DNA of 64,000 bases, taken from sequence record PQ666540; one strand, written 5' to 3'. Source of the DNA: Shigella phage sb2. The position numbers were made by a program, and so were the translations under genes. Below the pieces are notes generated by a model, which ran no database searches, was not told where the DNA came from, and saw nothing but the letters and a program-made list of their open reading frames with translations. Shown piece by piece: positions 8,259 to 10,108 of this stretch. Each line of letters begins with the position of its first letter. The stretch's first letter is position 1.

Positions 8259-8288
8259 ATTATACCACATCCTTGTGGTAAAGTAAAC
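8259..8288 (-). promoter_or_regulatory. T4-type early promoter upstream of rIIA.1/rIIA
   Basis: GTTTAC (8283-8288) overlapping gene 39 stop, TGgTATAAT -10 (8259-8267). Confidence 0.65.
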
Positions 8289-10108
8289 TATTGGCTCATC
8301 CATTCTTTACGAAGGTCAGCATTATCTCCCATGAGCATTTCAAAAAGCTCTTTCCAGTTCTCAGGAAGTTTAACAACATCATATACTGGGTTTTGAATCA
8401 TCTCACGATATTCAGATTTTTCCAAAGAGCCAAGTCCATTAATATAACGGATGCTATGTTTAGGTAGAGCATCTTTGGCACTCTCATATTCAGCGACTGT
8501 ATAAAACCATTCTTGTTTTTTACCGACCTGAGCGATGATTACAGGAGTTTTGACGAAGCGAATTCTTCCTTGTTCAAACAGTTCTGGCCAATTACTAAAA
8601 AATCCAAGCAGAGAAGGATAAATGCTTCCTAGACCATCGTGGTCAGCATCAGTCATAATAGCAATATTATGATAATTCAAGTTTTCAGCCTTTTCACCAA
8701 GAACTAATCCAGTGATTGCGCAAATATCAAACAGTTCTTTGTTTTTAAGCATATCAGCATATGACATACCCCAACTGTTGAGAACTTTACCACGTAATGG
8801 ATAACCGCCATGAAGTTCTTTATCACGAACATCAATAAGATATCCGATAGCAGAATCACCCTCAGTCAAGAAAAGAGTCGTGTCAGCGTCTTTACCACAA
8901 AGATTCGCTTTAATGTGTTTATGAACTTTAGCTTTAGAAGCCTTTTTAGCTGCTTTAGTTTCTGCTGCCTTTTCTGCCGCCAATTTACGAGCCAAAGCAG
9001 CTTCAATAATTGGCATTAAAATTGCTTCATTATTTAAAATAGCACGTGAAATCTTTTTAGCATCAAGCTGAATATGACTACGAATTTCACCAAATGGAGA
9101 AGTCAAACGCTCTTTAGTTTGAGAATCAAATCGCATGTTTTTCATATCACGAACAAACATGACGATAGTCAAACATTCTTTAACACGTGCTTTAGTTACA
9201 TCAATTTTGAACTTGCGTTTGATTTGCGGAATAAGGTCTTCACAAATATCATCCATAACACAGTCAATGTGATGGCCACCATTCTTAGTATGAATGTTAT
9301 TGACGTATGTTAATTGACGAAAACCATCTGGTGAACGACCGACCGCAATAGAACAATTTTCTTGTTCTTGAACAATAGCATGCTCATCATATTGGCGTGC
9401 GTATTTCTTAAAATTGCCCTGAACCTTTTTACCGTTAAAGGTAAATTGAATATCAGGATAAACTACTGCAAGTGTCTGGAGACGATCCAGTGTAATGTCA
9501 AGATAAACCTGAGACAGCTCATTAGTTTCAAATGACATAAAATCAGGAATGAAAGTAACACGAGTTCCTTTCCATTTTCCAGGAATAGTTTCCCATGATT
9601 TATTTTCCATGCCATTTGAACAACGAACTACAATATTATTTTGACCGTCGCCAGTTTCACCGACAAACATCACAGAAAAAATGTTAGTTAAACTAGAACC
9701 AACACCGTTCATACCACCAGTGACGCGTTCTTTGTCATCACCGAAGTTACCACCTGCTTTTGGAATAGTCCAGGCGGCAACAGGACCAGGAATTTCTTCA
9801 CCAGTAGGTGTTTTAACCATCGCTTGTGGAATACCACGACCGTTATCTTCAACTGTTACTTGATTGTTTTTGATAGTAACATTAATTTTATTTGCGAATT
9901 TAAACTTAGTACGAATACCTTCATCTACTGAGTTATCGATAATTTCATCAATAAGCTTAACAAGACCAGGTACATACTGAACACTTTCCCATTTACCAAA
10001 CAGAAAGCGCTCATGCATTTCATTAGCAGAAGAACCAATGTACATGCCGCTACGCTTTTTGATATGTTCAATATCGCTCAGAATTTTAATTTCATTCTTA
10101 ATCATCAC
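8288..10108 (-). CDS. 39: DNA topoisomerase II large subunit, unsplit gene 39 (GyrB-like ATPase plus TOPRIM)
   Basis: 606-aa ORF; N-terminal GHKL ATPase motifs; C-terminal ...AIMTDADHDGLGSIYPSLLGFF... equals the part encoded by separate gene 60 in T4. Confidence 0.9.
   Translation of the reverse strand: MMIKNEIKILSDIEHIKKRSGMYIGSSANEMHERFLFGKWESVQYVPGLVKLIDEIIDNSVDEGIRTKFKFANKINVTIKNNQVTVEDNGRGIPQAMVKTPTGEEIPGPVAAWTIPKAGGNFGDDKERVTGGMNGVGSSLTNIFSVMFVGETGDGQNNIVVRCSNGMENKSWETIPGKWKGTRVTFIPDFMSFETNELSQVYLDITLDRLQTLAVVYPDIQFTFNGKKVQGNFKKYARQYDEHAIVQEQENCSIAVGRSPDGFRQLTYVNNIHTKNGGHHIDCVMDDICEDLIPQIKRKFKIDVTKARVKECLTIVMFVRDMKNMRFDSQTKERLTSPFGEIRSHIQLDAKKISRAILNNEAILMPIIEAALARKLAAEKAAETKAAKKASKAKVHKHIKANLCGKDADTTLFLTEGDSAIGYLIDVRDKELHGGYPLRGKVLNSWGMSYADMLKNKELFDICAITGLVLGEKAENLNYHNIAIMTDADHDGLGSIYPSLLGFFSNWPELFEQGRIRFVKTPVIIAQVGKKQEWFYTVAEYESAKDALPKHSIRYINGLGSLEKSEYREMIQNPVYDVVKLPENWKELFEMLMGDNADLRKEWMSQ

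Follow-up and report, generated by a model that had tools for sequence, protein, structure and literature searches.

Gene 39 of Shigella phage sb2 encodes the DNA topoisomerase II large subunit as one continuous chain and carries an empty MobA site

To characterize the DNA topoisomerase II large subunit of Shigella phage sb2, we analyzed a 64,000-nucleotide stretch of its genome (sequence record PQ666540; hereafter, the window). Gene 39 of this phage, a Tequatrovirus near pSs-1, almost certainly specifies the whole GyrB/ParE-like subunit as one chain of 605 amino acids and has never received the MobA element.

In the ORF list of the window, gene 39 is one uninterrupted ORF of 605 codons on the minus strand (8288..10105), which closes with a TAG stop codon (8288-8290) and was assigned to the DNA topoisomerase II large subunit on the basis of the ORF, its Pfam matches and its identity to T6 gp39. 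As sequenced, gene 39 (8288-10105) is free of frameshifts and internal stops and contains no hidden insertion. The original prediction of one continuous large-subunit gene is therefore borne out by a single minus-strand ORF that aligns without gaps to T6 gp39 and covers the homology to both gp39 and gp60 of T4. The single ORF stood, whereas its predicted length and start did not: the protein comprises 605 rather than 606 residues and starts at 10105 rather than at 10108. The mechanically delimited ORF (8288..10108) opens at a GTG codon (10106..10108, minus strand), which lies in frame immediately 5′ of the gene 39 ATG and is the source of the count of 606 residues; the ATG at 10105 is the very next codon. 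A Shine-Dalgarno sequence, GAGGA (10112..10116, minus strand), is located 6 nt upstream of this ATG (context ...AAACGAGGATAAGTGATG). In the annotated T2, pSs-1 and sb3 genomes, gene 39 starts at the matching ATG (1818 nt, 605 residues), and the N-terminus read from it, MIKNEIK, is the same as that of T2, T6 and pSs-1 gp39. Because GAGGA is found 6 nt upstream and the relatives are annotated from this codon, we chose the ATG at 10105 as the start of gene 39; the GTG at 10108 is probably not an initiation codon.

The best match of gp39 among solved structures is T6 gp39 (chain 8ylu_C), the construct used for the solved structure (PMC11461880), to which it is identical at 603 of 605 residues over the full length and without gaps. 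The two differences are Asn556, which is Lys in T6, and Gln526, a position at which T6 has His whereas sb2 and T4 share Gln. Three residues distinguish the protein from T2 gp39 (602/605 identical), which has Leu and Asp at the positions of Phe70 and Thr173. Accordingly, the pairwise alignments, which run collinear with T4 gp39 and gp60 and differ by three residues from T2 and by two from T6, agree with the T2/T6-like arrangement that had been proposed. The T2 and T6 proteins share with that of sb2 the length of 605 residues in a single chain, the domain order and the genomic place between rIIA.1 and 39.1. Only two amino-acid differences separate the protein from its pSs-1 counterpart; 34 of the 36 codon differences between these genes are synonymous, which indicates purifying selection on gene 39. 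The next structural match after 8ylu_C, a fused T4 gp39-gp60 construct (8yo3_C), aligned in two stretches, and ParE, GyrB and eukaryotic Topo II chains aligned in one stretch over residues 7-604 (E about 1e-47 to 1e-59).

The domain composition is that of a complete subunit. Pfam recognized a GHKL ATPase (HATPase_c, E = 1.9e-9, which exceeds the gathering score), whose N-box, G1 and G2 motifs are IDNS 56, DNGRGIP 87 and GGMNGVG 130; it is followed by a transducer domain (Pfam DNA_gyraseB, E = 1.5e-13) and the QTK-loop lysine (FDSQTK at 326-331, QTK at 329). The TOPRIM motifs are EGDSA 415, PLRGK 436 and DADHDG 486-491, and Pfam TOPRIM_C scored 27.4 bits, slightly below the cut-off of 29. The acidic residues of EGDSA and DADHDG correspond to Glu415, Asp486 and Asp488 of T6 gp39 (PMC11461880). 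On sequence grounds, with GHKL ATPase, transducer and TOPRIM in one polypeptide, gp39 is predicted to be the ATPase/TOPRIM subunit of a type IIA topoisomerase. The same GHKL, transducer and TOPRIM architecture is seen in bacterial GyrB and ParE and in the N-terminal half of eukaryotic Topo II; compared with these proteins, the phage subunit lacks the GyrB insertion domain, has a short TOPRIM C-terminal tail and is distant in sequence.

Alignment with T4 by BLASTP assigned both parts of the chain. Residues 1-473 correspond to T4 gp39 1-473 (98.3% identity, no gaps) and residues 472-605 to T4 gp60 27-160 (94.8%), whereas residues 474-516 of T4 gp39 and approximately residues 1-30 of gp60 have no counterpart in the sb2 protein. 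At the nucleotide level, the part that matches T4 gene 39 proper spans 8688..10105 on the minus strand (gene nt 1-1418, residues 1-473), and the part that matches post-bypass T4 gene 60 spans 8288..8623 on the same strand (residues 495-605). The blastn alignment paired window 10197-8688 with T4 5420-3911 (95.8%), window 8679-8634 with T4 2899-2854 (only 78%) and window 8623-8210 with T4 2793-2380 (98.3%). The T4 segment 3910-2900, which comprises the end of gene 39, mobA, 60.1 and the start of gene 60, found no counterpart in the window by blastn, and the junctions on either side were clean; in total, T4 is longer here by about 1 kb plus 50 nt. The 50-nt gap of T4 (T4 2852-2803) was not found anywhere in the window when searched for at up to three mismatches. 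This search and the clean T4 junctions rule out a hidden bypass or insertion in gene 39 as sequenced. As predicted, there is no gene 60 split or bypass: gp39 and gp60 homology reside in one ORF, and the mobA region and the 50-nt gap are missing. Except for the insert-derived tails, T4 gp39 and gp60 together represent the same protein. Unlike in T4, the sb2 gene is unsplit and lacks the 43-residue C-terminal extension of gp39 and the 30-residue N-terminal extension of gp60, as well as the mobA and 60.1 ORFs, the GGA-UAG take-off codon and the 50-nt gap.

The most prominent feature of the nucleotide comparison is the interval at which identity to T4 breaks, after gene nt 1418 (residue 473), and returns, at nt 1483, 9 nt beyond Gly491. 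It is occupied by an intact, empty MobA site of 64 nt (8624..8687, minus strand; gene nt 1419-1482, residues 474-494; ENLNYHNIAIMTDADHDGLGS), which encodes the DxD metal-binding aspartates. Over this tract, which MobA-bearing phages have replaced, the MobA target sequence of T2 gene 39 is present at 63 of 64 nt, and the sole difference is synonymous. The Gly491 codon is GGT (8633..8635, minus strand) and is directly followed by the Leu492 codon CTA, without a gap; the corresponding place in T4 gene 60 is taken up by the GGA take-off codon, UAG, the 50-nt gap and the landing GGA. The MobA element of T4-type phages substitutes its own diverged copy (HomR) and the 50-nt gap for the 64-nt tract; it inserts at nt 1399-1419, its clade 1 end lies just after D490/G491 plus 9 nt, the 64-nt tract is deleted in the example of HY01, and the element-borne homologous region is 67-81% identical to the parental one (bioRxiv 10.1101/2022.08.31.505936). 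Both junctions in the window (nt 1418/1419 and 1482/1483) and the 64-nt tract coincide with the MobA boundaries of Manning & Atkins. The same site coordinates and 64-nt tract characterize their 'parental Topo2L' genomes, for example RB14, which are paired with MobA carriers such as HY01; no difference from these 2022 genomes was found, and sb2 is a further member of the group.

To estimate how common the undivided gene is, we used window 7900-10300 as a query. This region matched 556 phage records, 495 of which were contiguous, covering 80% or more of it at a single location. The T4 cassette (T4 2780-3800) was present in only 43 records, comprising T4 isolates, RB55, RB59, HY01 and similar phages. 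Relatives in IMG/VR provided 31 distinct loci with 69-100% protein identity, all 31 of them single ORFs collinear over the split point. An unsplit gene 39 is the rule among sequenced relatives, and T4 is the exception. The T2 and T6 enzymes have been described as consisting of two subunits, with T4 as the exception (PMC11461880; bioRxiv 10.1101/2022.08.31.505936), and one-piece Topo2L as the parental form that the MobA element enters (Manning & Atkins, bioRxiv 10.1101/2022.08.31.505936). The earlier description of the arrangement as ancestral finds support in the collinearity of the 31 IMG/VR relatives at the split point, in the alignment of ParE and Topo II across it and in the agreement with Manning & Atkins. 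The one-piece gene 39 is already known, represents the majority state and is not remarkable: it is the textbook T2/T6 form, the MobA/bypass cassette of T4 has been analyzed in detail already, and the finding as such matters little.

By analogy with T6, two gp39 and two gp52 chains would assemble into gp39(2)gp52(2), a phage type IIA topoisomerase, in which gp39 would dimerize via its ATPase domains and provide the TOPRIM metal site (Glu415, Asp486, Asp488), and gp52 would provide Tyr117. This assembly would cut the G-segment and, driven by ATP, pass the T-segment through the transient double-strand break. The partner subunit with the catalytic tyrosine, gp52, is encoded in the same window. Both the mechanism and the assayed activity of the T6 enzyme have been reported (PMC11461880), and near-identity to it suggests that the sb2 enzyme may likewise carry out ATP-dependent relaxation and decatenation.

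In T4 and about 40 sequenced relatives, the MobA element has split the gene into 39 and 60 and added the 50-nt bypass gap. MobA is reported to nick T2 gene 39 in this tract, and the 50-nt insert to protect the donor (Bonocora et al. 2011, as cited in bioRxiv 10.1101/2022.08.31.505936). Because the empty sb2 site closely matches this T2 site, we predict that the phage is a potential recipient of the MobA cassette in mixed infection; as such, it could serve as the recipient in homing experiments.

One position of gp39 departs from the pattern of conservation. Codon 556 (8438..8440, minus strand) is AAT (Asn) owing to a private G-to-T change, so that the RYIKGLG motif reads RYINGLG; the codon is AAG in pSs-1, sb1, sb3 and T4 and AAA in T2. 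The 61 nt around it are matched exactly by none of 483 phage records, all of which are one mismatch off. Lys556 is present in all 31 IMG/VR relatives, and position 556 is the only site of gp39 at which the sb2 residue occurs in no relative. The protein as written lacks the conserved lysine of YKGLG, a type IIA motif; given the 603/605 identity to T6 gp39, its family membership should be unaffected. In T6 Topo II, Lys556 touches DNA (PMC11461880), and a possible role of the YKGLG motif in controlling the catalytic metal has been discussed (PMC6723622).

A second anomaly is found in gene 52, which encodes the medium subunit with the catalytic Tyr117 (295..1515, minus strand) and reads 406 rather than 442 residues. 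Residues 1-406 are near-identical to T4 and T6 gp52, Tyr117 included, and the last 36 residues are missing as written. The premature TAA (295-297) results from a GAA-to-TAA change at 297, in codon 407. It is one of seven private G:C-to-T:A changes clustered within about 165 nt (window 188-350), all of which alter coding: Ser to Tyr, Gly to Val, Met to Ile, Glu to stop, Ala to Ser and Ala to Asp, and a seventh, at 188, which turns the TGA stop and the overlapping 52.1 ATG into TTA and ATT, so that both are lost. Both gp39 and gp52 bear private changes, and neither exact protein occurs in a collection of 15 billion proteins.

We counted the classes of change relative to pSs-1 over 60 kb, within minus-strand ORFs. 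Transitions were 896 synonymous to 178 non-synonymous (17% non-synonymous) and G-to-T and C-to-A changes 40 to 70 (64%; Fisher p = 7e-25); in the first 11 kb alone, the synonymous and non-synonymous counts were 3 and 16 for the G:C-to-T:A class versus 147 and 21 for transitions (p = 1.6e-10). Changes of the G:C-to-T:A class introduce further stops into ORFs that are intact in pSs-1, and alignment confirmed those in genes 43 and 56. In gene 56 (dCTPase), GAA GAA has become TAA TAA (21154, 21157), and the ORF, intact in pSs-1, stops at 21155 in the window and continues to 21085 in pSs-1. An imm-like ORF, likewise intact in pSs-1, has a stop at 29209, and stops at 31970 and 31988 split gene 43 (DNA polymerase) into 675 and 196 residues. 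A premature stop relative to pSs-1 is also listed at 49322. T4 requires both gene 43 and gene 56, and the stops therefore cannot all be real in a viable phage. Collectively, the record seems to hold about one G:C-to-T:A error per kb, as a rough estimate, which fits one suspicious change in the 1.8-kb gene 39. Because the class to which it belongs mostly alters amino acids and stops essential genes, K556N is probably a base-call error and not biology.

In a search for a motif that would point to a sequencing platform or to cytosine modification, the G:C-to-T:A changes had no strong trinucleotide context and were evenly divided between the strands (60 versus 60), and we accordingly propose no cause. 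A further private change of the G-to-T class, GGT to TGT in rIIA codon 14 (window 7980; G14C) near the N-terminus, differs from T2, T4, pSs-1 and sb3. In the record of Shigella phage sb1 (PQ666539.1, 1-11000), the annotation breaks gp52 into three pieces and rIIA into two, and four private transversions lie in an 81-nt stretch of gene 39; this record may thus be a noisy assembly of a phage from the family of isolates to which sb2 belongs.

Three other readings of these data were weighed. Taken literally, Asn556 and the 36-residue truncation of gp52 might impair the enzyme, and the phage could then be a wild 'DNA-delay' phage with a defective topoisomerase II that uses the host gyrase. In favor of this are the uniqueness of Asn556 among the 483 phage records and 31 IMG/VR relatives, the DNA contact of Lys556 in T6 Topo II and the TAA at codon 407 of gene 52. 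Topoisomerase mutants of T4 are viable, and its 'DNA-delay' mutants in genes 39, 52 and 60 depend on host gyrase. We nevertheless regard a genuine defect as very unlikely, since the G:C-to-T:A class has a non-synonymous share far above that of transitions and also places nonsense codons in genes 43 and 56, both essential, and since comparable noise and broken-up genes are seen in the sb1 record. In the sb2 record, oddities of single residues and apparently 'truncated' genes should not be over-read.

The remaining two readings concern the one-piece gene itself. It could have been regained if an ancestor split by MobA had recombined with an unsplit phage during co-infection and lost the cassette in this way: T-even genomes are mosaic, the window alternates between pSs-1-like and sb1/EP01-like haplotypes, and other clades have been described as losing the endonuclease by 'hit and run' (Manning & Atkins, bioRxiv 10.1101/2022.08.31.505936). 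Such a history is extremely unlikely in view of a gene in which nothing is left of the C-terminal and N-terminal extensions that the element encodes, a 64-nt tract of the parental type (63/64 to T2) rather than the HomR type of T4 (78%), a protein collinear with relatives down to 69% identity, and a placement alongside pSs-1, sb3 and ESh16, in which the gene is unsplit. A clean recombinational replacement would leave no trace, and the identity of the present gene would be the same either way. There is next to no likelihood that the continuity of the ORF was produced by the assembly, for instance by a reference-guided assembly on an unsplit relative that masked a real mobA insertion. The signs of imperfect base calling and the start of the window at the start coordinate of pSs-1 would be compatible with it, but the 36 differences from pSs-1 and 83 from T2, nearly all synonymous, show that the gene is not a reference copy; the empty site has synonymous variants of its own, and substitution errors cannot remove a 1.1-kb insert. 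Collapse of an insertion in assembly is unlikely given natural-looking synonymous differences from every reference. The reading of gene 39 as a one-piece gene that never received the element is left untouched by the errors in the record, because substitutions can neither create nor hide a 1.1-kb insertion.

The T4 reference itself contains an irregularity in this gene. At about 4345-4360 of NC_000866 (gp39 residues 326-328), it reads MRLIRQTK, versus MRFDSQTK in the window and in all 31 relatives, as a result of the loss of one base and the gain of another 8 nt away (CGATTTGATTCTCAA versus CGATTGATTCGTCAA). These two changes amount to a compensated frameshift, and the reference record seems to preserve an early sequencing error here.

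The genomic setting of gene 39 is that of a T-even phage. The first 25 kb of the window align over their full length with Shigella phage pSs-1 (Tequatrovirus) at 97.5% identity, with coordinate 1 in both, and the first 60 kb at 97.4%; the G+C content is about 35%, and nearly all genes lie on the minus strand. The neighbors of gene 39 follow the T-even gene order: rIIA.1 (8030..8233) and rIIA (5842..8019) are located downstream, and a 39.1-like ORF (10175..10444) of 89 residues with a lipoprotein-like N-terminus is located upstream. An ORF of 123 residues (10441-10812, minus strand), flanked by the 39.1-like gene and a 39.2-like gene (FmdB-type zinc ribbon), is shared with pSs-1 and sb3 and has no counterpart in T4, the homology to which stops at about T4 5661. 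A promoter and terminator scan of 7900-10600 revealed nothing notable within gene 39, and promoter-like sites in this region numbered 6 versus 9.9 in shuffled sequence. The sole good site in the scan was a predicted sigma-70-like promoter on the minus strand (8287-8259; TTTACT, 17-nt spacer, TG, TATAAT; 10/12), which directly follows the gene 39 stop codon and faces rIIA.1 and rIIA.
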